The notes under the pieces: model-generated
What the model was told of the DNA's origin: nothing
The model's input: only the letters and a program-made list of their open reading frames with translations
The model's database searches: none
Shown: in pieces, positions 5,204 through 60,279 of the stretch
Layout of the letters: each line of letters begins with the position of its first letter
How positions within the stretch are numbered: position 1 is the first letter of the stretch
Assembly: GCA_013426185.1 (NCBI GenBank)
Contig: CP058602.1
Coordinates: 724,582 to 788,581 of the forward strand
Source: Candidatus Woesebacteria bacterium
GTDB taxonomy: Bacteria > Patescibacteriota > Microgenomatia > UBA8517
DNA: 64,000 bases
Direction: 5' to 3'
Program-made: the position numbers and the translations under genes

Positions 5204-5569
5204 ATGACAAGTCTTCCTGAAAAAGAACCAATTTTACCCTCCGAACAAGGGGTGTCTGTTAGACCCGAAACCTTATCTGAGAAAATAGAGAAAGTTGTTC
5301 CGGGAGTTCAAGTTGTGCCCACCCAGTTTAAAAAGCAGGTGACGGATGACCGGGGCAAACCTCTGATTACCACTCCTCAGGCGAAGAAGGTGGTTATTGA
5401 ATTGCCAGAGACAGAGGAGGTCTTAATTCAGGAAAGTAAAGGAAGTGTGGATGATTCCAAAACCTGGCTTGCCAGGTTTTGGTTGAGGATGGTGGAGAAA
5501 GCGAAGTTTTTCGGTTGGCAGATAGTTAGTATGGTTAATCTTGGAGTAGAGAAAAAGAACAATGCCTGA
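5204..5569 (+). CDS. hypothetical protein, overlaps start of downstream ATPase (operon partner)
   Basis: ORF only; 8-nt overlap with 5562 gene. Confidence 0.35.
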   Translation: MTSLPEKEPILPSEQGVSVRPETLSEKIEKVVPGVQVVPTQFKKQVTDDRGKPLITTPQAKKVVIELPETEEVLIQESKGSVDDSKTWLARFWLRMVEKAKFFGWQIVSMVNLGVEKKNNA

Positions 5570-7880
5570 TATCAATTTTATAGTTGGTTTTATTTTTCTT
5601 TTAGGCTTTCTGGCTTTCTTTTTAGCTTTTTTGGGTTTTATTGTTTTTACTTTCTTCAGATGGCGGGGAAGGGAAAAGGATTCTGTTGACTCTATCTTAC
5701 TTCGGGTCCTTGTGCCCAGAACCAATGAAGTCAAAATAGATGCCATGGAGCAGGTTTTTGCTTCTTTATTTTCTATCAAAAAGGGCGGGTGGAAGCAGAA
5801 ATTTTCATTTCAACCATCAATTGGATTTGAAATAGTAGCTCGTGAGGGTTACATCAACTTTTATGTCTTTTGCCCAAGCCGCCTTAAAGATTTAGTCGAA
5901 AAGCAGATCAATGGTGCTTATCCTGATGCAGAAGTTGTGGAGGTTCCTGAATACAATATTTTCACTGACACAGGCAAGGTGGCTTACAAAGCTTTTCAGT
6001 TGAGAGCAGAGAATTACAAACCTATTAAAACTTTTAAAGATTTGCCGGTTGATCCCTTATCTTCAATTACTTCAGTCTTGGCAAAAATGGGTGAGAAAGA
6101 AGCTGCTGTGATTCAGATTTTAATTTCTCCGGCTGATTCCAAGTGGCAAAAGGATGGCTCGCATTTTATTTCAGAAACTAAAAAGAGAGAGTCAGATCCC
6201 GAGAAGGCTAAGTTTAGCGTTTCTGGCAAGACTCTTGAAGCAGTTGAGAATAAAATTGGAAAACCTGGTTTTGAGGTTAGTATTAGAGCTATTGTGGTCT
6301 CTGAATCAAGCGAACTAGCAAAGATGCACCTTGGCAATATCAGCGGCGCTTTTGAACAATTCTCCAGCGAGTTTAATGGTTTTAAGTCTCGCAAGATTTA
6401 TCATAAAGCTTCGTTTATGGAAGATTTTCTGTATCGCTATATGCCGATGTTTAATATCTTGGGTAATCGACCTTCAATTCTAAACTCCGAAGAGTTGGCT
6501 ACTATCTTTCATTTTCCCAATCGCAGTATTACAACGCCCAATATTCAGTGGCTAAACGCTAAAAGAGCTCCTGCACCATCAATTGTTCCTGAGGAAGGCT
6601 TGTTTTTGGGAATGAGTGTCTTTAGGGGTATTAAAAGGAGAGTTTGTGTTTCAGATGATGATAGAAGAAGACATATTTATATTATTGGCGCAACAGGTAC
6701 TGGAAAATCTGAGCTCTTAAAACAGATGATGCTTCAAGATATGAAAGAAGGTAAAGGGATTTGCTTTATTGACCCTCATGATACTGTCCGCCAGCTTTTA
6801 CCTCTTATCCCGCCTGAGCGCGCCGAAGATGTTATCTACTTTAATCCTGCTGATACCGAGCGGCCAATGGGACTTAATCTTCTTGAGGCAAAAACTGAAG
6901 ACGAAAAACATTTTGTAGCAACCTCGGTTATTAACTTGATGTATAAGCTCTTTGATCCTTACAAGACTGGTATTGTTGGCCCACGTTTTGAGCACGGTGT
7001 TAGAAATGCAATGTTAACTGCGATGGCTGAGGAAGGGAATACTTTTATTGAGGTTGTGCGTATTATGACTGATTCTCGTTTTACTCAGGAGCTTTTGCCC
7101 AAGGTGACAGATCCTATGGTCAGGCGTTATTGGACTGATCAGATTGCACAGACTGCAGACTTTCACAAATCTGAAGTTTTGGACTATACAGTCTCCAAAT
7201 TTGGTCGTTTTGTGACAAACAGAATGATGAGAAATATTATTGGCCAGTCAAAATCTTCCTTTTCTTTCCGCAAGGTGATGGATGAAGGCAAGATTCTTTT
7301 GATTGATCTTGCAAAGGGTGAGTTGGGTGAAGAAAATTCCAGCTTCCTGGGGCTTATCTTGGTGCCAAGAATTCTAATGGCGGCAATGAGTAGACAGGAT
7401 ACGCCTGAGGAAAAAAGACGCGATTTTTATCTTTATGTAGATGAGTTTCAGAACTTTGCCACTCCTGATTTTGCTGTTATTTTATCAGAAGCTAGAAAAT
7501 ACAGACTTAACCTTTGTGTTGCTAATCAATTTATAGGCCAGATGGAAGAGGAAGTTAAAAATGCTGTTTTTGGTAATGTGGGAACCAAAATAGCATTTAG
7601 GGTTGGCGTGAGCGATGCTTCTTACCTGGCTCGCGAATTTGCGCCCGTTTTTAGTGAAGAGGACCTTTTGAATATTGAGCGTTTTAATGCTTTTGTGAAG
7701 ACAATTGTTCGCAACGAACCTGTACCTCCATTTTCGATTGATACGACAAAAGATATGAGCGAGATTAAAAAACAAGAAAATCCCAAAGTTGCTCAGATTA
7801 TCAAAGAAATGAGCCGACTAAAGTATGGTCGAGATGTAAGGGAAGTGGAAGCGGAAATTGCTCGTCGGGCTAAACTTTAA
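5562..7880 (+). CDS. VirD4/TraD/TraG-like P-loop NTPase (T4SS coupling-protein-like, DUF87-type) with two N-terminal TM helices
   Basis: N-terminal TM pair, Walker A GATGTGKS, Walker B LYVDEFQNF, conserved CVANQ block; paralog of 52787..54940. Confidence 0.5.
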   Translation: MPDINFIVGFIFLLGFLAFFLAFLGFIVFTFFRWRGREKDSVDSILLRVLVPRTNEVKIDAMEQVFASLFSIKKGGWKQKFSFQPSIGFEIVAREGYINFYVFCPSRLKDLVEKQINGAYPDAEVVEVPEYNIFTDTGKVAYKAFQLRAENYKPIKTFKDLPVDPLSSITSVLAKMGEKEAAVIQILISPADSKWQKDGSHFISETKKRESDPEKAKFSVSGKTLEAVENKIGKPGFEVSIRAIVVSESSELAKMHLGNISGAFEQFSSEFNGFKSRKIYHKASFMEDFLYRYMPMFNILGNRPSILNSEELATIFHFPNRSITTPNIQWLNAKRAPAPSIVPEEGLFLGMSVFRGIKRRVCVSDDDRRRHIYIIGATGTGKSELLKQMMLQDMKEGKGICFIDPHDTVRQLLPLIPPERAEDVIYFNPADTERPMGLNLLEAKTEDEKHFVATSVINLMYKLFDPYKTGIVGPRFEHGVRNAMLTAMAEEGNTFIEVVRIMTDSRFTQELLPKVTDPMVRRYWTDQIAQTADFHKSEVLDYTVSKFGRFVTNRMMRNIIGQSKSSFSFRKVMDEGKILLIDLAKGELGEENSSFLGLILVPRILMAAMSRQDTPEEKRRDFYLYVDEFQNFATPDFAVILSEARKYRLNLCVANQFIGQMEEEVKNAVFGNVGTKIAFRVGVSDASYLAREFAPVFSEEDLLNIERFNAFVKTIVRNEPVPPFSIDTTKDMSEIKKQENPKVAQIIKEMSRLKYGRDVREVEAEIARRAKL

Positions 7881-7940
7881 CTTCTTTTCTGATATAATAT
7901 AACTCTAGCGATTTTTCCTTGATGAAATTTTGAGGTCAAG

Positions 7941-8012
7941 GGTCGGTAACTCAGCGGCAGAGTACCACTCTTATAAAGTGGGAGTCGGTGGTTCGAATCC
8001 ACCCCGACCCAC
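7941..8012 (+). tRNA. tRNA with anticodon UAU (apparent tRNA-Ile(UAU))
   Basis: cloverleaf folded by hand: acceptor GGGTCGG/CCGACCC, D-stem ACTC/GAGT, anticodon stem CCACT/AGTGG, loop CTTATAA, T-arm GGTGG-TTCGAAT-CCACC, discriminator A. Confidence 0.7.
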
Positions 8013-8055
8013 CCTTAGGTAAATAATTCTTAGGAAGCGCTTTTTTTGAGGTTTT

Positions 8056-8922
8056 TTATAACTCTTCTAATTCCTGTTTGTTTCCCGCTTCTTTGATGCC
8101 CGCAAGCTCGAGATAACTTTCAGTGGTTGAGAGCCTTTTGTGCCCTGCAACTTGGGAAAGCAAAACCAAATTTACCCCTGCTTTTAAATTCTCAACTATG
8201 AAAGTGGTGCGCAAGTCGTTAATGGTATAGCTTGGCATTTCTGCTTTTTGAATATACCTATTGATAGTTGATCTGATGTTTCTGACAGCAAGCGGCTTTC
8301 CGTTTTTGCTTACAAAAAAGTAAGGAGAATCACTTTTTGGTCTTTCATTCTTAAGATAATTGTCAAGAGCCTCTTTTGCTCTTTTGTTTAAAGGAATAAC
8401 TCTTTCAGGTTGGCTGGCATAAGCTTCAATTTTTATTTCTTTATCACCTACATTTGCAAGTTTGAGGTTGGCTACCTCTGAAATTCTAAGCCCTGTTTGA
8501 AGAATTAATTCTACGATGGCTGCTGTTCTCAAGTCAGAACGTACAGTGTCTCTTAAAGCACGGTACTCAAGTTTAGAAAGGAATTTAGGCTTGGCAGGTT
8601 CTGTTTTTGGATGAGAAACATCTTGAGCAGGGTTACTTGAGATATGTTTTTGTTCAACAGCAAATTTAAAAAATGTCTTTATTGCGTTTAGTTTCCTTGA
8701 AACGCTTTTGGGTGTGTATTTTTCAGCAAGGAGGGTATCGCGATAGGCCTCAATTAGCTCCTTTCCTATTGATTGGATATAAGGCTTTTGTTTCTTTTCT
8801 GCGAAATCCACAAACTGCTCAAGGTCCGCCCTATAAGCTATAATAGTTGAGGGCGACCTTTTTTTATCTTCCAGACTTTTGATAAAGTTTGGGAGCAGAG
8901 CCTTTAACATTGTTTGTTCCAT
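8056..8922 (-). CDS. tyrosine recombinase (XerC/XerD-like integrase)
   Basis: N-terminal SAM-like domain, C-terminal R...HxxR...Y block (AGHKRLSTTESYLEL); lies 44 nt from a tRNA gene. Confidence 0.75.
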   Translation of the reverse strand: MEQTMLKALLPNFIKSLEDKKRSPSTIIAYRADLEQFVDFAEKKQKPYIQSIGKELIEAYRDTLLAEKYTPKSVSRKLNAIKTFFKFAVEQKHISSNPAQDVSHPKTEPAKPKFLSKLEYRALRDTVRSDLRTAAIVELILQTGLRISEVANLKLANVGDKEIKIEAYASQPERVIPLNKRAKEALDNYLKNERPKSDSPYFFVSKNGKPLAVRNIRSTINRYIQKAEMPSYTINDLRTTFIVENLKAGVNLVLLSQVAGHKRLSTTESYLELAGIKEAGNKQELEEL

Positions 8923-8993: not shown

Positions 8994-9413
8994 ATGGGTA
9001 TTAATTTTAACAGTTTATTTGTTCATAAAGCTGAGAAAAAAAATGTCTCTTGGTTTAATAAGGTCTTGTCTTTAGCCTTCTCTGTTTTAACAATTTTAGT
9101 ATTTAGCGCTTTTTGGAGTAATTTTTCCAAGCTAAGACAAGCTGAGAAGAAGATAGAAGAGAAAAAAAGAAGTCTTGAGGAATTAAGAAGAGAAAATGAA
9201 TCTATCAAAAATAGGCTTAAGGAGATTAGTTCAGAGGCGTATATCGAGAAACAACTAAGGGATAATTTAGCGATGGTAAAAAAGGGCGAGGTTGTGGTGG
9301 TTTTGCCTGATGAGGAGACTATCAAGAGTTTTGTCCCCAAGATAGATATTGGTGGTGACAAGGCAATTAATTTGCCTAATTGGCGCAAGTGGTCTCTTTT
9401 CTTTAATTTCTAG
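8994..9413 (+). CDS. FtsB/DivIC-like septum formation initiator (single TM + coiled coil)
   Basis: TM segment followed by coiled coil KLRQAEKKIEEKKRSLEELRRENESIKNRLKEI and conserved GEVVVVLPDEE-like tail. Confidence 0.55.
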   Translation: MGINFNSLFVHKAEKKNVSWFNKVLSLAFSVLTILVFSAFWSNFSKLRQAEKKIEEKKRSLEELRRENESIKNRLKEISSEAYIEKQLRDNLAMVKKGEVVVVLPDEETIKSFVPKIDIGGDKAINLPNWRKWSLFFNF

Positions 9414-9419
9414 ATTGTG

Positions 9420-9705
9420 TTGCGGGGCTGGGGATCGAACCCAGTCTGGAAGATTATGCCTAAAGTTTTCTCCGATTTCTCGAGAGTGTCGGACTATGTC
9501 TTGCCCGTGAGATAAGAAATCTATCTCAAGGGCTTTGGCGTATAGTCTCTACGGATTTTACATTCATGTAAACCGAACGTAATCTTTCCTCGGCGTTGCC
9601 ATGATCAAATAGATTTTAGGTTTCGCCGATATAGCCAAATTTTTCCCCCATTAAATCGAGGGAAGCCCATTTTGAGCCTTCCGTGCAGCCGTACACTACC
9701 CCGCA
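9420..9705 (-). tRNA. tRNA(CAU) (elongator Met or Ile2/lysidine type) interrupted between U33 and C34 by a group I intron
   Basis: 5' exon TGCGGGGTAGTGTACGGCTGCACGGAAGGCT (9705-9675) and 3' exon CATAATCTTCCAGACTGGGTTCGATCCCCAGCCCCGCA (9458-9421) join to a 69-nt cloverleaf with loop CUCAUAA; acceptor TGCGGGG/CCCCGCA. Confidence 0.75.
9459..9674 (-). ncRNA. group I intron (IC3-like, Azoarcus tRNA-Ile intron-like core) inside tRNA(CAU)
   Basis: 5' exon ends in U, intron ends in G (..ACUUUAGG). An internal guide sequence (GGGCUUCC) pairs with the exon end (GGAAGGCU). Core blocks AUCGGCGAAACCUAA, AUGGCAACGCCGAG and CCGUAGAGACUAUACG resemble the Azoarcus/cyanobacterial tRNA introns as I recall them from memory. 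Confidence 0.7.
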
Positions 9706-9800
9706 TGTTAACTATAAAGAACATGCGCATTATACATGGAATTTGGTAGTTAAGCAACCCCCAATGCGTACCAGTATATATAGTATAATATAACTTAAGG

Positions 9801-10487
9801 ATGGCAAAATTTAAGGAGAGAATAAGGGCAAGAGAGTTAAGGAGGGAAGGTAGAAGCATTAAAGAAATAGCCAGATTGTTAAATGTTTCTCCGGATTCTG
9901 TTAGTCGTTGGTGTAAAGAAGTAAAACTATCAAAAGGTCAAATAAGAGAGTTAGAGAGACGTTGGAAAGATCCAAACTATGGAAAGAGATTAGAGAATTC
10001 TTTAAGACAACAAAAGAAGAGAATATTAAAAACAGAAAAATTGAAGAAGGCGGGTGTAAAAGAGATAGGCAATTTATCTAAAAGAGAACTATTCTTAGTC
10101 GGGGCTTCTTTGTACTGGGCAGAAGGATTCAAAAAAGATAGTCAAGTCGGGTTTGCCAACTCTAGTCCCGAGATGATGAATCTATTTCTCAGATGGCTTT
10201 ATGAGTGCTTTGGTTATAATACTAACGATCTAATGCTAAGGGTAACGGTAAACGTAAGTCATAAATATAGGATCGACGAAATTCAGAATTACTGGTCAGA
10301 AATTACAAAGATTCCTCTGGATAACTTTCAGAAACCCTTTTATCAAAATTTTAAGTGGAAGAAAATTTACGAGAACCCAAATGAATACTACGGTATATTA
10401 AGAATAAAGGTTCGCAAAAGCACTGATTTTTTAAGGAAAATACATGGATATATAGAAGGTTTGAAATTACAATCTCAAATAAGGTAA
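9801..10487 (+). CDS. HTH-domain protein with LAGLIDADG-like C-terminal region (putative free-standing homing endonuclease)
   Basis: N-terminal HTH (RSIKEIARLLNVSPDSVSRW). The block LFLVGASLYWAEGF...FANS resembles the LAGLIDADG of the 16S intron ORF. A decayed paralog at 44870..45559 is also followed by a tRNA. Confidence 0.4.
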   Translation: MAKFKERIRARELRREGRSIKEIARLLNVSPDSVSRWCKEVKLSKGQIRELERRWKDPNYGKRLENSLRQQKKRILKTEKLKKAGVKEIGNLSKRELFLVGASLYWAEGFKKDSQVGFANSSPEMMNLFLRWLYECFGYNTNDLMLRVTVNVSHKYRIDEIQNYWSEITKIPLDNFQKPFYQNFKWKKIYENPNEYYGILRIKVRKSTDFLRKIHGYIEGLKLQSQIR

Positions 10488-10499
10488 AATACAAGGCAA

Positions 10500-10572
10500 G
10501 CCAGGGTAGCTCAGTGGTTAGAGCATCGCATTCATAACGCGGGGGTCGTGGGTTCAAATCCCACCCCTGGCA
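10500..10572 (+). tRNA. tRNA(CAU), elongator-type (Met or Ile2)
   Basis: acceptor GCCAGGG/CCCTGGC, anticodon loop TTCATAA, T-arm GTGGG-TTCAAAT-CCCAC; G1-C72 pair so not initiator. Confidence 0.8.
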
Positions 10573-10599
10573 CTTTCTGTTTTTTCTGCCTTCAATTTA

Positions 10600-11011: not shown

Positions 11012-12013
11012 ATGAAACGTGTTTTTTCAGGTTCAAGACCGACGGGGAAGCTTCATCTTGGTAATTACTTGGGTGGGGTTAAAGGTTATTTGGAGCTTGC
11101 TAGAAACCCACAATTTGAGACTATTTATATGGTGATGGATTTGCATGCTGTTACCACTCCTTTTGATAGAAATAGCTTGGCGCAAAATACAAAAGATGTG
11201 ATTTTGGATTACTTAGCCTCGGGCCTTGATCCTGAAAAATCAATAATTACTGTCCAATCGCTTGTTCCTGAGCACACTTATCTTGCTCACTTGATATCAT
11301 CCACAGTAACAGTGGCCCGTATGCTTCACTTGCCGACTTACAAAGAAAAAATAAAACAGTATCCAAAAGAAGCAACTATGGCTCTTTTGAATTACCCAGT
11401 TCTTATGGCGGCTGATATCTTAGCTTACAAGGCGGATCTAGTTCCAGTGGGAGTTGATCAAGAGCCACATCTTGAGGTAGCCCGTGAGATAGCAAGAAAA
11501 ATGAACGAGAAGTATGGCACTAATTTTCCTGAACCAAAAAGATTTGCAACCAAGGGTGAGTACATTCCTTCTTTGACAGGGGAGGGAAAGATGAGTAAAT
11601 CAGTTGAGGGTAGTTACATTAATTTAACTGATTCACTTGAAGAAATAAGGGCAAAATTGGCTCGAGTTCCAACTGATAGTGGTAGTGGTACCACTGTGCC
11701 TCAAGAAGGCGGAGTATTTACCCTTTTGCTTTTCTCTGGTCTTTTTCTTGGCGATGACGCTCAAAAAGAGCTTGAAGCACAATATACATCATCTGGTATT
11801 AGGTACAAAGAACTAAAAGATAGGCTGGCTAGCGCTATTTTTGAAGAATTAAAGCCGATTCAGGAAAGAAGAAAAGAGATAGAATCAAGAAAAGGCTATC
11901 TTGAAGATGTAATTTTGGATGGAGCAAAGAAGGCAAGAAAAATAGCCTCCCAGATATTGGAGGAGACAAGAGAAAAAATGGGATTTATAAGATTGGTAGA
12001 AAGTAGAACGTAG
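11012..12013 (+). CDS. trpS: tryptophan--tRNA ligase
   Basis: class I HIGH-like TGKLHLGNYLG at N-terminus and KMSKS motif. Confidence 0.9.
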   Translation: MKRVFSGSRPTGKLHLGNYLGGVKGYLELARNPQFETIYMVMDLHAVTTPFDRNSLAQNTKDVILDYLASGLDPEKSIITVQSLVPEHTYLAHLISSTVTVARMLHLPTYKEKIKQYPKEATMALLNYPVLMAADILAYKADLVPVGVDQEPHLEVAREIARKMNEKYGTNFPEPKRFATKGEYIPSLTGEGKMSKSVEGSYINLTDSLEEIRAKLARVPTDSGSGTTVPQEGGVFTLLLFSGLFLGDDAQKELEAQYTSSGIRYKELKDRLASAIFEELKPIQERRKEIESRKGYLEDVILDGAKKARKIASQILEETREKMGFIRLVESRT

Positions 12014-49557: not shown

Positions 49558-50008
49558 CGAACAGTTAACTGTTAACAATTAACAAATTAACCAATTAAGA
49601 ATAAAATAAGCTGTGGAAACTTTTAGGTTTTTGAATTTTAAAGTTTACGAAGATAGTAAATCTTTTTACAAGAAATGTATTTTGTTGACTAGAAGCTTTA
49701 AGAGGGATTACTGGGAGCTTAAAGACCAACTTTTGAGAGCTGCTCTTTCAGTTTGTCTTAATATAGCCGAAGGTTCAGCAAAATATTCAGATAAAGATTT
49801 TAAACGATTTTTAGAGAATTCTTTGGGATCAATTAATGAGTGTTTAGCTTGTTTAGATATTGCTTTGGAAAATAGAATAATTTCTAAGATTGAATTCACT
49901 AGACTTCAGAAAGAAGCAGAGTCAATTGCAAAGCAACTAGGAGGTTTGATAAAGAAACTCCGCAATTCTTCTTAGTTGTTAATTTTGTTAAATTGTTAAT
50001 TTGTTAAA
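49558..50008 (+). other. 16S helix-6 intervening sequence carrying an ORF, closed by a long AT-rich stem
   Basis: rRNA stem TCCGCAGGACCG / GGTTCTGTCCTGCGGA flanks the insertion; extended complementary arms gaacagttaactgttaacaattaacaaattaacc / ggttaatttgttaattgttaac... Confidence 0.7.
49613..49975 (+). CDS. four-helix-bundle protein (rRNA intervening-sequence protein / Avd-like) encoded inside the 16S intervening sequence
   Basis: family signature ...LRAALSVCLNIAEGSAKYS...; paralog of 15910..16284. Confidence 0.7.
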   Translation: METFRFLNFKVYEDSKSFYKKCILLTRSFKRDYWELKDQLLRAALSVCLNIAEGSAKYSDKDFKRFLENSLGSINECLACLDIALENRIISKIEFTRLQKEAESIAKQLGGLIKKLRNSS

Positions 50009-50869
50009 GGTTCTGTCCTGCGGATAGTCGCGAACGGCTGAGTAACATGTAAGAACCTACCCAGAGGTGGGGAATACCCCCGCGAAAGCGGGGCTAATAC
50101 CGCATACGCTGCGTAGCAGCGAACTTTCAACACGCTCACACTGTGAGCTTCCAACAAACAAAAGACAACTTAATATTAGAGTTGTAAGTTGATTGTTGTT
50201 AGTTGAAGGTTGGCTGCTACGCAGCAAAGGGCGTAACTGCCCGCCTGTGGAGGGGCTTGCACACCATCAGCTAGTTGGTAGGGTAATGGCCTACCAAGGC
50301 TACGACGGTTAGGGGAGATGAGAGTCTGTTCCCCCAGAATGGGACTGAGACACGGCCCATACACCTACGGGTGGCAGCAACTGGGAATCGTGCGCAATGG
50401 GCGAAAGCCTGACGCCGCGACGCCGCGTGTGGGATGAAGGCCTTAGGGTTGTAAACCACTTTTGCCAAGTACCATACGGCACTTGGCGAATAAGCACCCG
50501 CTAACTACGTGCCAGCAGCTGCGGTAATACGTAGGGTGCGAGCGTTACCCGGATTTATTGGGCGTAAAGAGTACGTAGGCGTTCTGGTAAGTCACATTTT
50601 AAAGACTGAGGCTCAACCTCAGGAGTGGATGTGATACTGCCAGAATCGAAGAACTTAGGGGCTACTGGAACTTATCATGTAGGGGTGAAATCCGTTGATA
50701 TGATAAGGAACGCCAAGGGTGAAGACAGGTAGCTGGGAGTTTCTTGACGCTGAGGTACGAAAGCTAGGGGAGCGAAAGGGATTAGAGACCCCTGTAGTCC
50801 TAGCCGTAAACTTATGCTCGCTAGCCCTGTGCCATATGGCGCGGGGTGTAAGCTAACGCGTTAAGCGAG

Positions 50870-50919
<50 letters not shown>

Positions 50920-51395
50920 ACCTGCACAACCAGTGGAGCATGTGGTTTAATTCGAGACGAACCGAAGAACCTTACCCGGGTTTGACATTCTACCGTTTTA
51001 GTTTTCCAGAAATGGAGAGCGATCCTTAAGAAATTAAGGAAGGTAGAACAGGTGTTGCATGGCTGTCGTCAGCTCGTGCCGTAGGGTGTTCCCTTCAGTG
51101 GGGTAACGAGCGCAACCCCTGTCCTGTGTTAAATGTTCACAGGAGACTACCCTCCATTCGGAGGGGGGAAGTGGGGACGACGTCAAGTCAGCATGGCCCT
51201 TATGTCCGGGGCGACACACATGCTACAATGGAGCCTAACAATGGGTTGCCAAGCGGTAACGCGGAGCTAATCCCATCAAACGGCTTCTCAGTGGGGATTG
51301 AGGGCTGAAACCCGCCCTCATGAACGCGGAATTGGTAGTAATCGGAGATCAGCCAAGCTCCGGTGAATACGTTCTCAGGTCTTGTACACACCGCC

Positions 51396-52266
51396 AAAAG
51401 ATGCGCGCGTGGCAGTCATATATTCTAGTAAGTTAAAATCTTACCTTTCCTTGATGGTTTACCTTATCATCTTGGAATGTAGCCAAAAAAAAGTGGCAGT
51501 CCTATTGCAAAGTGAGAGCTTTGCTTTTACGGGTAACCGGTAGGACGGAGGGCCTGAGGCAAATGGCAGGGACAACACAAAAATGCTTGGCGACTTCTGC
51601 TGGGCGGTCAGAAGGAAGTCGATTTAAAAGCAGTTGTTCATGCCGGGAACAGAATATATGATGACCCATGGAGATCCTAGAAGGAACGAAGTAATTGCCT
51701 TTTAGGAAGTCAGCATTTCCATAGTAGATAATTGACAGTATACGGAAAATATTCGTATACTTGAATTATCGAAGGGAAATACGTAATGCTTCCAGCTTCA
51801 TATGTTGTTGGACTGACATAAGGCGAGGGATGTTTCCTAGTATCTATTCGAGCTGATAACAGAATCGATTTACGATTTTTTATTGCTCAAGCTGAAGGAA
51901 ATAAACCTCTGCTTTTGATGGTTCAGCAGTTTTTCAAAGTAGGGACTGTTTATCAAAAGAGTGCTAGACGCACTGGTCGTCTTCCCGCTTGGGTATTTGA
52001 AGTCACAAAAAGGGATGATATTTACAATGTCATAATACCTTTTTTCAAACGACATAAACTTTTAGGCTACAAAGCGAAAAGTTTTGATGCTTTTTGCCAA
52101 ATAGCCGAGATGGTTAAGGGAAGGCAGGATGTGCGCAAGCTCTCTAAAGAAGAACTCTCTTTTATTAGGAAGTTGAAGCTGGGGATGAATAAACATTACG
52201 GCTCGCTAAGTGCGGGAAAGCCGCTCGCTTAGTGGGAACGCACGATAACTTCGATGAAGTGCAATC
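51396..52266 (+). other. 871-nt intron-like insertion in 16S at the position equivalent to E. coli about 1400 (between CACACCGCC and CGTCA), containing a degenerate LAGLIDADG ORF
   Basis: flanking exon sequence reconstitutes the universal CCGCCCGTCA decoding-centre sequence; boundaries ambiguous by 1 nt; no canonical group I (U/G) or group II (GUGYG/AY) ends. Confidence 0.55.
51786..52232 (+). pseudogene. LAGLIDADG homing endonuclease remnant with in-frame TAA replacing the acidic codon of the motif (YVVGLT*GEGCF)
   Basis: translation from ATG 51786 read directly; downstream frame continues into ORF 51915..52232. Confidence 0.6.
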
Positions 52267-52541
52267 CGTCAAGTCAGCAAAGTTGGGGGCACCCGAACTC
52301 TCCTTGTTGGAGGGGAAGGTGAAACCAGCGATGAGGATTAAGTCGTAACAAGGTATCCGTCCTGGAAGGGGCGGATGGATCACCTCCTTTCTAAGGAGTG
52401 TAATCTACACCCCAGTTTTAATGTCGCCGTTTATCTGCTTCTTTTGGTTAATAAAAGAGGAAAAAACGGGGCACCTCTCCCAGTCATAATTTGGATGTTG
52501 AAGTTTCCTTTTTTCTCTTTAGGGCTGCTTTTGAAATAAAA

Positions 52542-52591
52542 AAGCCATCCTGGTATTTTATTTTTTTGAAAAATAAAAAGGATGGCTTTGG
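52542..52591 (-). terminator. long hairpin (AAGCCATCC ... GGATGGCTT) with T-run on the minus strand, downstream of the minus-strand ATPase operon
   Basis: 9-bp stem, AT-rich 29-nt loop, TTTTTATTT on minus strand. Confidence 0.45.
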
Positions 52592-52597
52592 TAAAAC

Positions 52598-52783
52598 TTA
52601 ATCCCCAAGAAGAGAAAATATCTTCTTGAAGATTAAAATAGTGGTTGGCCAAAAAGCTATTAAAAGAGCCAACCATGCAACTATAGGAAACAAGACGAGT
52701 AAAACAATTATCTCCATTTTTTCCTCCTTCTTGAATTTAAAAGTGCCTTTTTGAGTTCTAGACAGCTTTTTGTCTAGTCTCAA
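52598..52783 (-). CDS. small membrane protein, downstream operon partner of the VirD4-like ATPase
   Basis: 61-aa ORF with one TM, 3 nt from upstream gene. Confidence 0.3.
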   Translation of the reverse strand: MRLDKKLSRTQKGTFKFKKEEKMEIIVLLVLFPIVAWLALLIAFWPTTILIFKKIFSLLGD

Positions 52784-52786
52784 TGT

Positions 52787-54940
52787 TTAAGAGTAACTTT
52801 TGTCTGCCCACCTTTGTCGGGAGACTTCTATTACTTTTTGCTTGTTTTGATTTTTGGAAAGAGGAAGTGGAAGTGTGTGTGCCAAAAATGGGCGTGATGA
52901 ATGTCCGTCTATCATTAATTTGATAGCAATCTGATAATTTGCAAGATTAACAAGGTCATTTTCGCTAAAAACTTCGGCAAATTCTTTACTTAAGGCTGCA
53001 GCATCTTCTGCACCTGCTGAAAAGGTGATAATAGTTCCAGCATTGCCCAAAATTGCTTTTCTTACATTTTCAGGAATTTGGGCCATATATTGGTTGGCAA
53101 GAGTAAGCGAAAGATTATATTTCCTTATTTCAGAAAGTATTTTGATAAATGAATCTGTGGCAAAGTTTTGGAACTCATCAACAAAAACATAATAAGGAGT
53201 TCTTTGTTCTTGAGGAATATCAACTCTTCTCATTGCCGCAAGCTGAATTTGGGTAATAAGCATTGCTCCAAGAAGGTTTGCATTGTCTTCACCTAGCCTT
53301 CCTTGAGAAAGATTGGCAAGAAGAATTTTGCCTTCGTTGATGATTTTATCTAAAGAAATAGTGCTTTTTGGCCTGCCAATAATTCTTCTAATCATAGGGG
53401 AGGTTACAAACTGTCCAACTTTGTTTTGGATTGGAGCAATAGCCTCTTTTTGCAGGCGATCTGGCATTTTTTCGTATTCTTCTTTCCAAAAGTGGATTAG
53501 TGCTTGGTCGGTTGTTTTCTGCAAGACTTGATTGCGAAAGTTATTGTTAACCAAAATTTTAAGAACATCCTCAAGAGTTGAATTGGGGTAGGTGGCAAGA
53601 GTCATAAAAGAATTTCTCAAGATATATTCCATTCTTGCTGACCACACATTAGCCCAGACTTTGGTAAAGATGCTCATCAATCCCGAGACGACAAGCTCTG
53701 CTTCTTCCTGATTTTTAACCTCAAGAGGGTTGAGAGTAATGGGGAAGTCGCGGTCTGCCGGGTTAAAATAGACAACATCATTTATTCTATGGCTTGGGAT
53801 GTAATCCAAAAGGATCTCACAAGTATCGCCATGTGGATCGATGTAGGCAACACCGCGGTCTTTTTTAAAATCATCAATAATCATATTTGCCATCATTGTT
53901 GATTTACCTGTACCGGTCTTACCAACTGCCCACATATGGCGAACTCTGTCTTTATTTTTGATACCAAAAATGACTTCTTGGTTTCTGAATAAAGTCTTGG
54001 CAAAAAAATTAATTTCTTTTTTGGCTTCTTCATCAGAAGTTGCGATAGGTAAATTATCAGGCGGCTCGTAAAGCACTGAAACACCCCAGCTAATGCCAGT
54101 CGTTTTTATTTTCTCGCTTGGCAAATGCCAAAGCGTTGCCAGTTCTTTGATGTTTAATATTTGATTGTCACGAACAGAACGGTTAATTAGATTTTTTAGA
54201 TTATTTTGTTTTAGAGAAAATATACTTTTTTTCTTTGTTTTGAAAGCATTGCCATCGGCTCTATTGAAAACCCCAAAGGCGCTAATTAATTCTTTTACGG
54301 TTTTTGTTTGGTTTGAAGCGATTCTTATAGAAGTCCTGAAACCTGTGTAAGAAATTTTTTCATTTATTACATTTTTGTCCGATCTTGGAGAGTATGTTCC
54401 GTCCTCGTTTTTTGTCCCTTTTTCTGCAAAAGAGGCGCCTTTTTGTTGCCAAGATGAATCAGTCGCTTCAAGAGCAATTTGAATTAGCGCAAATTCATCA
54501 GGGTCATTTTTAGATAATACTGAAAGGACTGAAGATAAAGGATCTATCTCATTAAAGGATTCAAAAGTAGCAATTGGATAATAACTTCCTTTTTTAAGAA
54601 TAAGAGATGCTATTTGAAGATCTGAAATATTTAACTTGAAAAATTCAGGTTGGCTTAAAATATCTGGTGTTCTTTCTATAATAACAAGCGGATAATTTGA
54701 CTGAAGTTGTGTTTCAATAAAGGGAGCAATGTCCTTGTCACAGGTGATTTGAAACTTTATTTGCTGATTGACAAGCGCTATTTCAAGAGCGAGCGGCTGG
54801 GGAATGGTTCCTGTTAATTTTTCCCAAAAAGAGACAGCGTTAATCTGCGTTAGAGCAGAAAGAAAAGTCTGCGCCGCTTCAGGTGTAACCTCGGTACTCC
54901 TGGGTATTTTTAGGTTTAAAGTTACAAGTTCCAAAGGCAT
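52787..54940 (-). CDS. VirD4/TraD/TraG-like P-loop NTPase, paralog of 5562..7880, inserted between 16S and 23S
   Basis: Walker A GKTGTGKS, YIDPHGD...VYFNPAD, Walker B YVFVDEFQNFAT, TLANQ; no N-terminal TM. Confidence 0.5.
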   Translation of the reverse strand: MPLELVTLNLKIPRSTEVTPEAAQTFLSALTQINAVSFWEKLTGTIPQPLALEIALVNQQIKFQITCDKDIAPFIETQLQSNYPLVIIERTPDILSQPEFFKLNISDLQIASLILKKGSYYPIATFESFNEIDPLSSVLSVLSKNDPDEFALIQIALEATDSSWQQKGASFAEKGTKNEDGTYSPRSDKNVINEKISYTGFRTSIRIASNQTKTVKELISAFGVFNRADGNAFKTKKKSIFSLKQNNLKNLINRSVRDNQILNIKELATLWHLPSEKIKTTGISWGVSVLYEPPDNLPIATSDEEAKKEINFFAKTLFRNQEVIFGIKNKDRVRHMWAVGKTGTGKSTMMANMIIDDFKKDRGVAYIDPHGDTCEILLDYIPSHRINDVVYFNPADRDFPITLNPLEVKNQEEAELVVSGLMSIFTKVWANVWSARMEYILRNSFMTLATYPNSTLEDVLKILVNNNFRNQVLQKTTDQALIHFWKEEYEKMPDRLQKEAIAPIQNKVGQFVTSPMIRRIIGRPKSTISLDKIINEGKILLANLSQGRLGEDNANLLGAMLITQIQLAAMRRVDIPQEQRTPYYVFVDEFQNFATDSFIKILSEIRKYNLSLTLANQYMAQIPENVRKAILGNAGTIITFSAGAEDAAALSKEFAEVFSENDLVNLANYQIAIKLMIDGHSSRPFLAHTLPLPLSKNQNKQKVIEVSRQRWADKSYS

Positions 54941-54991
54941 ACTATTTATTATACCTTAATTTTGGGGTAAGAGTAGGGAGTTTATTTTTGG

Positions 54992-55063
54992 TGGGTGCGC
55001 ATGGAATCGAACCATGTACCTCTTCTTTATCAGAGAAGCGTTCTACCAGTGAACTACGCACCC
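54992..55063 (-). tRNA. tRNA-Ile(GAU), antisense to the rRNA genes
   Basis: acceptor GGGTGCG/CGCACCC, anticodon loop CTGATAA, T-arm CATGG-TTCGATT-CCATG. Confidence 0.85.
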
Positions 55064-55542
55064 TTGGTGACATTTATTTTATGATAAAAAGGCTTGTTAA
55101 GCAAATGGAAGGATAACTTAAAACTTAAAAGTCAAAAGTCAAAAATTAGATTACAGAATACAGATTAGAGAATAAAGAATAAAATTACAAATTCCAAGCT
55201 CCAAATTACAATATACAAACAATATACAAATTCTAAATTCTAATTTCTAAATTCTAAACAATTCTACAATTATCCAATTTTTCAAATCATAAATTAACTC
55301 AAAACTTAAAAATCAAAATTCAAAAGTTGGGATTAGAACAAAGAGAGTAGAAAGTAGGATGTAGTAAGTAGAAAGCAAAAATACAAAATTAAAGACCACA
55401 CCCCTCCTTTCTACTTTCTGCTTACTACTTTCTACTAACTCCCGAATGACTTTGACTAACCTCGCCGTAGGCGAGGACTAACTCTGACTAACTCCGCCAT
55501 AGGCGGAGACCAACTTTGACTAACTTTAACTAAAACCCGCTC
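55064..55542. repeat. mosaic modular repeat region (largest in window) in the 16S-23S gap
   Basis: about 230 nt reverse-complementary to 12040-12250; inverted pair of the GTAGAAAG module (55338-55440); gactaacctcgccgtaggcgaggactaac / gactaactccgccataggcggagacc hairpin pair. Confidence 0.85.
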
Positions 55543-55571
55543 TTGACTAATCTTATGCTTCTTTATATAAT
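55543..55571 (+). promoter_or_regulatory. consensus sigma-70 promoter TTGACT-17-TATAAT driving tRNA-Ala/23S/5S
   Basis: TTGACT 55543-55548, 17-nt spacer, TATAAT 55566-55571. Confidence 0.6.
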
Positions 55572-55698
55572 GACACTTGCCTTTTTGGGCCGGTATTATT
55601 TGTATTTGTTAATGGAAAAAACAGAAAGCTTAACTATAAAATTTCGAAGCCTTTTTGCAGGTTTGTAATTTTTAGAGGTTTTTTCCTTTGAACGTATT

Positions 55699-55726
55699 AC
55701 CGGCTCAAGAAGCCGGTTTTTTTGTT
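55699..55726 (+). terminator. terminator-like hairpin CCGGCT-caagaa-AGCCGG + T7 inside the rRNA leader, followed by GTTGCACTTTGAA motif
   Basis: seen directly; the same motif GGTTGCACTTTGAA follows the terminator before 16S (49350-49364). Confidence 0.4.
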
Positions 55727-55748
55727 GCACTTTGAATATCTTTTGGTT

Positions 55749-55823
55749 TGGGCCTGTAGCTCAGTTGGCTAGAGCGCTACATTTGCAATGTAGAGGTCAG
55801 CGGTTCGAAGCCGCTCAGGTCCA
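55749..55823 (+). tRNA. tRNA-Ala(UGC)
   Basis: acceptor GGGCCTG/CAGGTCC with G3-U70 identity pair, anticodon loop TTTGCAA; one C-C mismatch in T-stem. Confidence 0.8.
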
Positions 55824-55920
55824 CAGGCTCTTTGAAAAGTGAAGAGAATTTTGTCCTATCGCTTTCGTCAAATTAATTTTGGCGGGTAAAGCGAAAGAGA
55901 AAATGGGAAGGCCGTAAAAA

Positions 55921-60055
<4,135 letters not shown>

Positions 60056-60155
60056 TTTTTCCTTTCCTATTTTTCTCTTTCGCTTTGCCAATGGCAAAAT
60101 TCTTTTCACTTTCTCAAGCTTTAGCTTGAGAGTTTAAATTTTAGGTTTGGGCCTT

Positions 60156-60279
60156 TCGGTCTTTAAGAGCTAGGCGGAACCACCTGATCCCATTCCGAAT
60201 TCAGAAGTGAAACGCCTAAGCGCCGACGATAGTTGTCCGGCAACGGACCGCGAAAATAGGCCAAGGCCGAAAGACCCAA
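60156..60279 (+). rRNA. rrf: 5S rRNA
   Basis: CCACCTGATCCCATTCCGAATTCAGAAGTGAAACG core and closing helix GGTCTTT/AAAGACC; ends approximate. Confidence 0.65.

Follow-up and report, generated by a model that had tools for sequence, protein, structure and literature searches.

A compact group I intron between U33 and C34 of a tRNA(CAU) gene, probably the initiator, in a Candidatus Woesebacteria genome

A 64,000-nt stretch of the complete genome of a Candidatus Woesebacteria bacterium (GCA_013426185.1, contig CP058602.1, positions 724,582 to 788,581; hereafter the window) carries on its minus strand, at 9420..9705, a tRNA gene with the anticodon CAU whose two halves are separated by 216 nt. The locus raises two questions. 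Is the separating sequence a genuine group I intron, and is the tRNA that it interrupts the initiator or the elongator tRNA-Met? We are highly confident that the tRNA(CAU) gene is functional and that the insert separating U33 from C34 is a small group I ribozyme without an open reading frame (ORF), and the features of its acceptor stem make it likely that the host is the initiator tRNA.

The locus, its boundaries and its class are already in the literature. Nakagawa et al. (mSystems 2026, PMC13011429; preprint 10.1101/2025.07.03.662931) report a group I intron at 33/34 in the tRNA Met(CAT) of GCA_013426185.1, and the window sequence at 9420..9705(-) is identical to the published locus over 286 of 286 nt, with strand, boundaries and the 216-nt intron length in agreement. 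The published tRNA is labelled Met and not initiator, and the intron is given no structure model there. What we add is the probable initiator host, an estimate of the occurrence of the intron in related species, a covariation-backed model of helices P1-P10, a covariation between L9 and P5, and the observation that subgroup labels are unstable for this lineage. The locus thus carries little weight as a discovery, but may be of use for work on translation in bacteria of the candidate phyla radiation (CPR) or on minimal group I ribozymes.

A tRNA(CAU) gene with and without an intron

The 5' exon (9705..9675, 31 nt, UGCGGGGUAGUGUACGGCUGCACGGAAGGCU) comprises the 5' strand of the acceptor stem, the D arm and the 5' half of the anticodon stem, and ends in U33. 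The intron (9674..9459) starts directly after this U and closes with ..CUUUAGG, its terminal G (omega-G) being position 9459. The 3' exon (9458..9421, 38 nt, CAUAAUCUUCC...CCCCGCA) supplies the anticodon CAU, the 3' half of the anticodon stem, the variable loop, the T arm and the 3' strand of the acceptor stem, and is followed by the discriminator A at 9420. Joined, the exons form 69 nt that ARAGORN calls as a tRNA(CAU), a cloverleaf with the anticodon loop CUCAUAA. The U that closes the 5' exon, the G at the end of the intron and the 69-nt cloverleaf had all been stated in an earlier, sequence-only reading of this DNA, and all hold. For a tRNA it is unusually compact: the D loop has 6 nt (ACGGCU) and the variable loop 4 nt, the whole is about 70 nt long, and no CCA is encoded.

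An Infernal scan with the Rfam model Intron_gpI (RF00028), which had been proposed as a check, matches 9469..9726(-) over the full length of the model (positions 1-253) with 60.0 bits and an E-value of about 1e-12 over the 64-kb window. The curated gathering score of RF00028 is 50 bits, and the group I call is far beyond chance. In contrast to the joined exons, the split gene is absent from the default ARAGORN output on the genomic sequence, and in the published survey ARAGORN miscalls it as Leu(CAA) with an intron at 36/37 (PMC13011429, Table 1). A genome of this kind may therefore seem to be without a methionine or initiator tRNA when default tRNA finders overlook or miscall the gene. We also considered an ORF encoded in the 216-nt intron and rejected it; the two overlapping ORFs, at 9349..9510 (+) and 9605..9859 (-), span the exon/intron borders and look spurious.

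To collect relatives of the locus, a single genome of each species was scanned for a 22-nt piece of the 5' exon (tRNA positions 2-23). These 22 nt are identical in at least 120 species genomes (at least 120 loci), and at least 114 Microgenomatia species genomes share the 5' half of the tRNA without a difference. Most of the matched genomes bear the name Woesebacteria, Shapirobacteria or Patescibacteria group; the taxon labels of some are wrong. Many contigs with a Microgenomatia-type tRNA (L002, L004, L006 and others) are deposited as 'uncultured Gammaproteobacteria', 'Pseudomonadales' or 'Actinomycetota' metagenome-assembled genomes, probably through wrong labels or mis-binning of the contigs.

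Among the matches listed, to which all counts of related species in this text refer, at least 91 orthologues have no intron and read uninterrupted ...GGCUCAUAAUC..., 23-24 loci carry an insert of 184-266 nt at the identical U33/C34 site, and six loci end at a contig edge. The intron is present in about 20% of the 114 related species. Across the junction, the intron-less orthologues read GGCUCAUAA, and several of them have exons identical to those of the window over the compared region. A U before the intron and a G as its last base are found in all 24 homologous introns. None of the 24 is long enough to encode a homing endonuclease, and the extra sequence in three of them is non-coding: about 45 nt in P2 (L029, 6678..6963), about 45 nt in L9, where it replaces the GNRA loop (L017, 159..427), and about 25 nt in P5 (L010, 82..334). 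Contigs from several independent samples carry the window locus either identically, as in GCA_020725745.1, SRR29635775 and SRR28264341, or with few changes. One strain variant turns a U•G pair of P9 into U-A and another alters the penultimate G of the intron while the terminal G is kept; each of these cross-sample variants improves pairing or spares the terminal G.

Fold of the intron and its predicted splicing

We drew P1-P10 by hand on the window sequence, a check that had likewise been proposed, and tested the drawing on the 24 introns, aligned by MAFFT with 10 nt of exon on each flank. The model is supported by this alignment: 82% of the alignment cells are paired, and sliding the 3' partners by 1-3 columns lowers the share to 35-48%. 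Changes on both sides are seen in 35 pairs, and the observed covariation score was reached by none of 500 shuffles. RNAfold, blind to the model, recovers P2, P3, P4, P5, P5a, P6, P8 and P9 (z = -4.8 relative to shuffles). The RF00028 match, the intron-less orthologues, the covariation of P1-P10 and the independent thermodynamic fold thus agree with the claim of the sequence-only reading, a 216-nt group I intron after U33 of a tRNA(CAU). Among the features by which RF00028 group I introns are recognized, the following are found: a P1 U•G pair with its guide, a terminal G, and the core helices P3-P8, including the P3/P7 pseudoknot, with covariation.

The internal guide AUG/GGCUU lies at 9663..9670 (minus strand, as do all elements of the fold). 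Its GGCUU pairs with the exon sequence AGGCU (9679..9675) to form P1, which places U33•G at the splice site; the partner of U33 is the second G of the GGG in the guide. Both U33•G and C32-G are present in 24 of 24 introns and the next two pairs in 22-24. The AUG of the guide pairs with the CAU of the 3' exon (9458..9456) as P10, with pairs held in 19-23 of the 24. The guide had previously been recognized as pairing with the end of the exon, which stands, but in the register GGGCUUCC:GGAAGGCU, which is off by one. That register contains a G×G mismatch in all 24 introns; a shift by one position yields four conserved pairs together with P10.

P2 (9645..9662) is a hairpin, CCCUC-GAUUUAAU-GGGGG, with compensatory changes in relatives. 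The 5' strand of P3 (UUUGGC, 9634..9639) pairs with GCCAAA at 9539..9534; 95.8% of its cells are paired and three of its six pairs are doubly changed. In the P4-P5 domain (9590..9629), P4 (UCGGCG/CGCCGA) is 99% paired with compensatory changes, J4/5 is AAA and J5/4 is CAA, and P5/P5a (CCUAAAAUC..GAUCAUGG) is a variant of the 11-nt GAAA-tetraloop receptor. P6/P6a (9553..9589) forms the hairpin GG-AAAG-AUUACGUUC..GAAUGUAAAAU-CC, whose GG/CC pairs occur in all 24 introns and whose distal part is variable and poorly aligned. The 5' strand of P7, G-A(bulge)-GACUA (9543..9549), pairs with UAGUCC at 9496..9491 and makes a pseudoknot with P3; all six pairs are invariant in the 24 introns, and the G-C pair beside the bulged A is presumably the one that binds guanosine. 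P8 (9503..9533) is the hairpin GCCC-UU-GAGAUAG..UUAUCUC-AC-GGGC, with closing pairs that covary in relatives, and P9 (9470..9486) is the hairpin CUCU(C)GA-GAAA-UCGGAG, which has a GNRA tetraloop, is 93% paired and has four of six pairs doubly changed. The three blocks quoted earlier as core elements, AUCGGCGAAACCUAA, CAUGGCAACGCCGAG and CCGUAGAGACUAUACG, are present and correspond to P4/J4-5/P5, P5'/J5-4/P4' and J6-7/P7/J7-3, respectively. The overall layout is compact and IC3-like. P2 is present, P2.1, P5abc and P7.1/P7.2 are absent, P9 is single, and the spacers J7/3 (P7 to P3') and J8/7 (P8 to P7') are short, at 3 and 6 nt, with P3' directly adjoining P8.

L9 is GAAA in 8 of the 24 introns and GUAA in 15; the remaining one (L017) has the P9 insertion. 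P5 departs from a plain helix in all eight GAAA introns, mostly as a CCUAA..(U/C)AUGG-like motif, and is a plain helix in all 15 GUAA introns. The motif is CCUAAA/CAUGG in the window and the canonical CCUAAG/UAUGG in the intron with the P9 insertion. A GAAA L9 that comes with a receptor-like P5 is a textbook tetraloop/receptor covariation, in agreement with the clamp that L9 and P5 form in the Azoarcus intron. As a covariation of sequence motifs, this pattern suggests that the GNRA loop of L9 docks into the P5 receptor.

With the sequence, the boundaries, the conserved fold and the intron-less alleles directly observed, catalytic activity of the window intron is expected by analogy, and we infer its splicing mechanism from the group I family. 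The precursor would be transcribed from the minus strand and the intron would fold into a core of two domains, P4-P6 and P3-P7-P8 (the latter with the P3/P7 pseudoknot), clamped by the contact between the L9 GAAA tetraloop and the P5 receptor. P1 would present U33•G, and exogenous guanosine, bound at the P7 G-C pair beside the bulged A, would attack after U33. The terminal G (9459) would then occupy the guanosine site, and P10, formed after the first step between AUG and CAU, would align the 3' exon. Finally, the freed 3'-OH of U33 would attack after 9459, giving ...GGCU-CAUAAUC... and restoring the loop CUCAUAA.

Identity of the host tRNA and genomic context

In addition to the split gene, the window contains a second tRNA(CAU) at 10500..10573 (+) and a tRNA-Ile with the anticodon UAU at 7940..8013 (+). 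A tRNA-Ile(UAU) is uncommon in bacteria. Here it covers AUA, which suggests that AUA is read without lysidine and that there is no tRNA-Ile2. In the 10500..10573 tRNA-Met, the base of the anticodon stem is mismatched (A31×C39). For the complete genome, tRNAscan-SE and ARAGORN alike give two tRNAs for Ile and one for Met, and for the intron-less relative GCA_013374855.1 the Met count is two (PMC13011429, Table S2). The complete genome appears to have exactly two CAU tRNAs. With AUA left to the UAU tRNA, the initiator must on this count be either the split gene or the gene at 10500..10573.

The acceptor stem of the split gene (UGCGGGG/CCCCGCA) has U1-A72, G2-C71, C3-G70 and G4-C69, with A73 as the discriminator. 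In the relatives, position 1:72 is U1-A72 in 98 of 114 and C1×A72 in the other 16, and A73 is found in all. The combination that marks an initiator, a weak or mismatched 1:72 pair with G2-C71, C3-G70 and A73, is thus present. In PMC13011429 Table S5, the same acceptor stem occurs in Nitrospirota tRNAs typed fMet, and its 5' strand also in an fMet tRNA of Desulfobacterota.

Several features of the locus weigh against an initiator host or a working intron. In the anticodon stem (A29-U41, G30-C40, G31•U39) the three consecutive G-C pairs are absent, and the relatives likewise have only one or two of the three. The 11:24 pair is U:A and not the A11:U24 of initiators, and the tRNAscan-SE-based typing gives 'Met', not 'fMet', for the host (PMC13011429). 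A promoter and terminator scan found no significant pattern, with one weak promoter-like site against 1.9 expected by chance. P7 and much of the core are invariant, and so give conservation without covariation, while the distal parts of P6, P8 and P5a vary in length, are poorly aligned by MAFFT and are 49-68% paired. L2 of the window intron is GAUUUAAU and not a GNRA loop, whereas most relatives have a GUAA-type L2, and a second clamp between L2 and P8 is doubtful in this copy and may be missing. The splicing assays of PMC13011429 covered only the Asn and Asp introns at 35/36.

The first three of these features favor the published assignment, in which the host is the elongator tRNA-Met and the initiator would be the intron-less tRNA(CAU) at 10500..10573. 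The published 'Met (CAT)' was assigned by the best BLAST match to an intron-less homologue that tRNAscan-SE types as Met (PMC13011429). However, the tRNA at 10500..10573 has G1-C72 and a standard elongator D arm, while the intron-bearing family has U1-A72 or C1×A72 with G2-C71, C3-G70 and A73, and shares its acceptor stem with tRNAs of other phyla that are typed fMet. G1-C72 combined with an elongator D arm is incompatible with formylation and with use in the P site in bacterial initiators. An elongator host is therefore unlikely in our view, though it deserves to be kept in mind, and the organism probably has no initiator tRNA other than that of the split gene. The position of the intron could also be questioned. 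Since CA opens the intron as well as the 3' exon, three junctions yield one mature sequence, and 34/35, 35/36 or, following the call of ARAGORN -i listed in Table 1 of PMC13011429, 36/37 of a tRNA-Leu(CAA) might be proposed. Only 33/34 puts a U at position -1 and a G at the end of the intron, and P1 and P10 fit 33/34 alone. Furthermore, 10 of the 24 homologous introns start with AG or UA rather than CA; because these are unambiguous and end the CA-repeat ambiguity, 33/34 is the only junction that restores CAU, and the intron-less orthologues indeed read CUCAUAA. The probability of another junction is negligible.

Given a split at U33/C34, the intron might still be a decayed, inactive relic and the gene a pseudogene, as activity of the window copy is argued by analogy and its L2 is without the GNRA loop of the relatives. 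This is very improbable. The genome appears to have only two tRNA(CAU) genes, and the loss of one would remove either initiation or the elongation of methionine; the core helices are all intact, with a perfect P7, both U(-1)•G and the terminal G have been retained, and the sequence is conserved across samples with variants that keep the pairing. Another possibility is that the intron is genuine but in vivo requires help from a cofactor protein or chaperone, or responds to the supply of guanosine/GTP and Mg2+, and serves as a control point for initiation instead of being a neutral passenger. A regulatory role has been speculated on (PMC13011429), the host is probably the sole initiator tRNA, and the L2-P8 clamp appears to be missing. 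On the other hand, there is no evidence for any cofactor, the intron is missing from 91 of the 114 related species, a point against any essential role in regulation, and compact relatives self-splice in vitro without protein (PMC13011429). We consider such a control point quite doubtful, and favor a functional tRNA(CAU) gene with a small ribozyme.

Since the host is most likely the sole initiator tRNA, translation initiation would depend on the splicing of this intron. A broader scenario joins several of these points: the sole initiator tRNA of a genome of well under 1 Mb would be split by a member of a compact, IC3-like family that moved between tRNA sites without a homing endonuclease. As a whole this scenario is a long shot. 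If it is true, each round of initiation depends on a guanosine- and Mg2+-dependent ribozyme reaction, and a nucleotide scavenger could couple its capacity for initiation to the supply of guanosine nucleotides. The family would also have shifted between Met 33/34 and Asp 35/36 within Microgenomatia, and an IC3-like family would be at odds with the published statement that Patescibacteria tRNA introns are not of the IC subgroup.

The split tRNA lies between a DivIC-family gene (8994..9413, +), which is convergent with it across a gap of 6-7 nt, and a gene for a helix-turn-helix protein (9801..10487, +). A class I aminoacyl-tRNA synthetase gene (Pfam tRNA-synt_1b) is located at 11012..12013 and a tyrosine recombinase gene at 8056..8922 (-). 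The 43-nt gap between the 3' end of the tRNA-Ile(UAU) and the 3' end of the recombinase gene (8013..8056) is a hot spot that varies between strains. Beside the recombinase gene, contigs of other samples with the same flanking genes (L122, L123, L125) have either two small ORFs (one of 83 aa, the other of 163 aa with faint TPR matches only) or an N6/N4 methyltransferase and an HNH protein.

Two paralogous genes for TrwB/TraG-like coupling-protein ATPases (Pfam TrwB_AAD_bind, TraG-D_C, DUF87) are found at 5562..7880 (+) and 52787..54940 (-), and each adjoins a tRNA-Ile, the UAU tRNA at 7940 and a GAU tRNA at 54989..55063 (-), respectively. The rRNA genes (49967..60272) are not arranged as a compact operon: 4.4 kb separate the 16S gene (49967..51469) from the 23S gene (55916..60062), and the second ATPase gene and the tRNA-Ile(GAU) lie between them on the opposite strand. 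The 23S gene is 4147 nt long compared to a model of 2925 positions, with insertions near 56080, 56296 and 56790 among others; the RF00028 scan of the window detected no group I intron in these insertions.

Relation to known group I introns

Introns at 33/34 of tRNA-fMet have been known as a class since the 1990s. The place observed here, after position 33 and before position 34 of a CAU tRNA, is the 'fMet.2Ug' site, one of the four classical types of bacterial tRNA introns, all of which are filed as IC3 in the cited group I database (Williams, 10.1101/2020.01.27.920355). Nakagawa et al. count 33/34 in tRNA-fMet among the commonly found, previously reported sites (PMC13011429). The novelty of the insertion site that had been implied from the sequence is thus not borne out. 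Nor are tRNA group I introns atypical of CPR-like lineages, as had been supposed; they are frequent in Patescibacteria, and the window locus is itself listed (PMC13011429, Table 1/S3).

To place the family, a profile of it was scored against introns whose subgroup labels are printed in PMC13011429 Table S5. The highest scores among these, 64 bits each, are obtained for an Elusimicrobiota Phe 31/32 intron labelled IA3 and a Bacteroidota Arg 34/35 intron labelled IC3, followed by the self-splicing Microgenomatia Asp 35/36 intron (57 bits) and a Bacillota Arg 34/35 intron labelled IB3 (50 bits). The IA1-labelled introns compared from the same source give at most a weak match, 11-18 bits, one of them only from P7' to P9. 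In the published typing, which takes the best-scoring subgroup model, no Patescibacteria tRNA intron is assigned to IC (PMC13011429). In Table S5, Arg(TCT) 34/35 introns that resemble one another closely carry the label IC3 or IB3 depending on the genome. Judged from the sequences and entries compared, the published subgroup labels are unstable for this lineage, as its nearest neighbours are labelled IA3, IC3 and IB3 at similar scores. The term 'Azoarcus-type', given to the core by the sequence-only reading, is right for the architecture, but runs counter to the published automated typing, and the formal subgroup may well be IA3 in that scheme.

The tRNA-Leu(UAA) 34/35 intron of cyanobacteria and plastids (Anabaena/Nostoc; IC3) is likewise a self-splicing group I intron of the anticodon loop and shares the overall core, but its tRNA and site differ and the similarity is distant (20-27 bits). 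The intron of the Azoarcus tRNA-Ile2 is small like that of the window, without P5abc and with a single P9, has a GAAA L9 with a P5 receptor of the CCUAAG/UAUGG type, and is similar in the P4/J4-5 and J6-7/P7 blocks. It differs in its position at 36/37 and in a GAAA L2 that docks into P8.

The classical tRNA-fMet 33/34 introns share with the window intron the site, the CUCAUAA loop, an AUGGG-type guide that pairs with GGCU and CAU, and the acceptor stem of the host. They are known from cyanobacteria and also from Bacteroidota, Nitrospirota, Desulfobacterota and Omnitrophota. In the examples compared, those of other phyla are longer (245-305 nt), and some carry PD-(D/E)XK endonuclease genes; a further difference is that the window tRNA lacks the three G-C pairs of the anticodon stem. 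The family profile gives the fMet introns of other phyla, a set without a cyanobacterial member, 21-48 bits, compared to 57-64 bits for the Arg 34/35, Phe 31/32 and Asp 35/36 introns. Because the fMet introns score below these others, a separate origin of the family at 33/34 is possible.

Of the labelled introns compared, the one that aligns best locally is the tRNA-Asp(GUC) 35/36 intron of the Microgenomatia genome GCA_001029755.1, with 115 identities over 148 positions. The two introns differ in host tRNA, site and guide, but share the order of helices and the bacterial class, and the Asp intron self-splices in vitro (PMC13011429).

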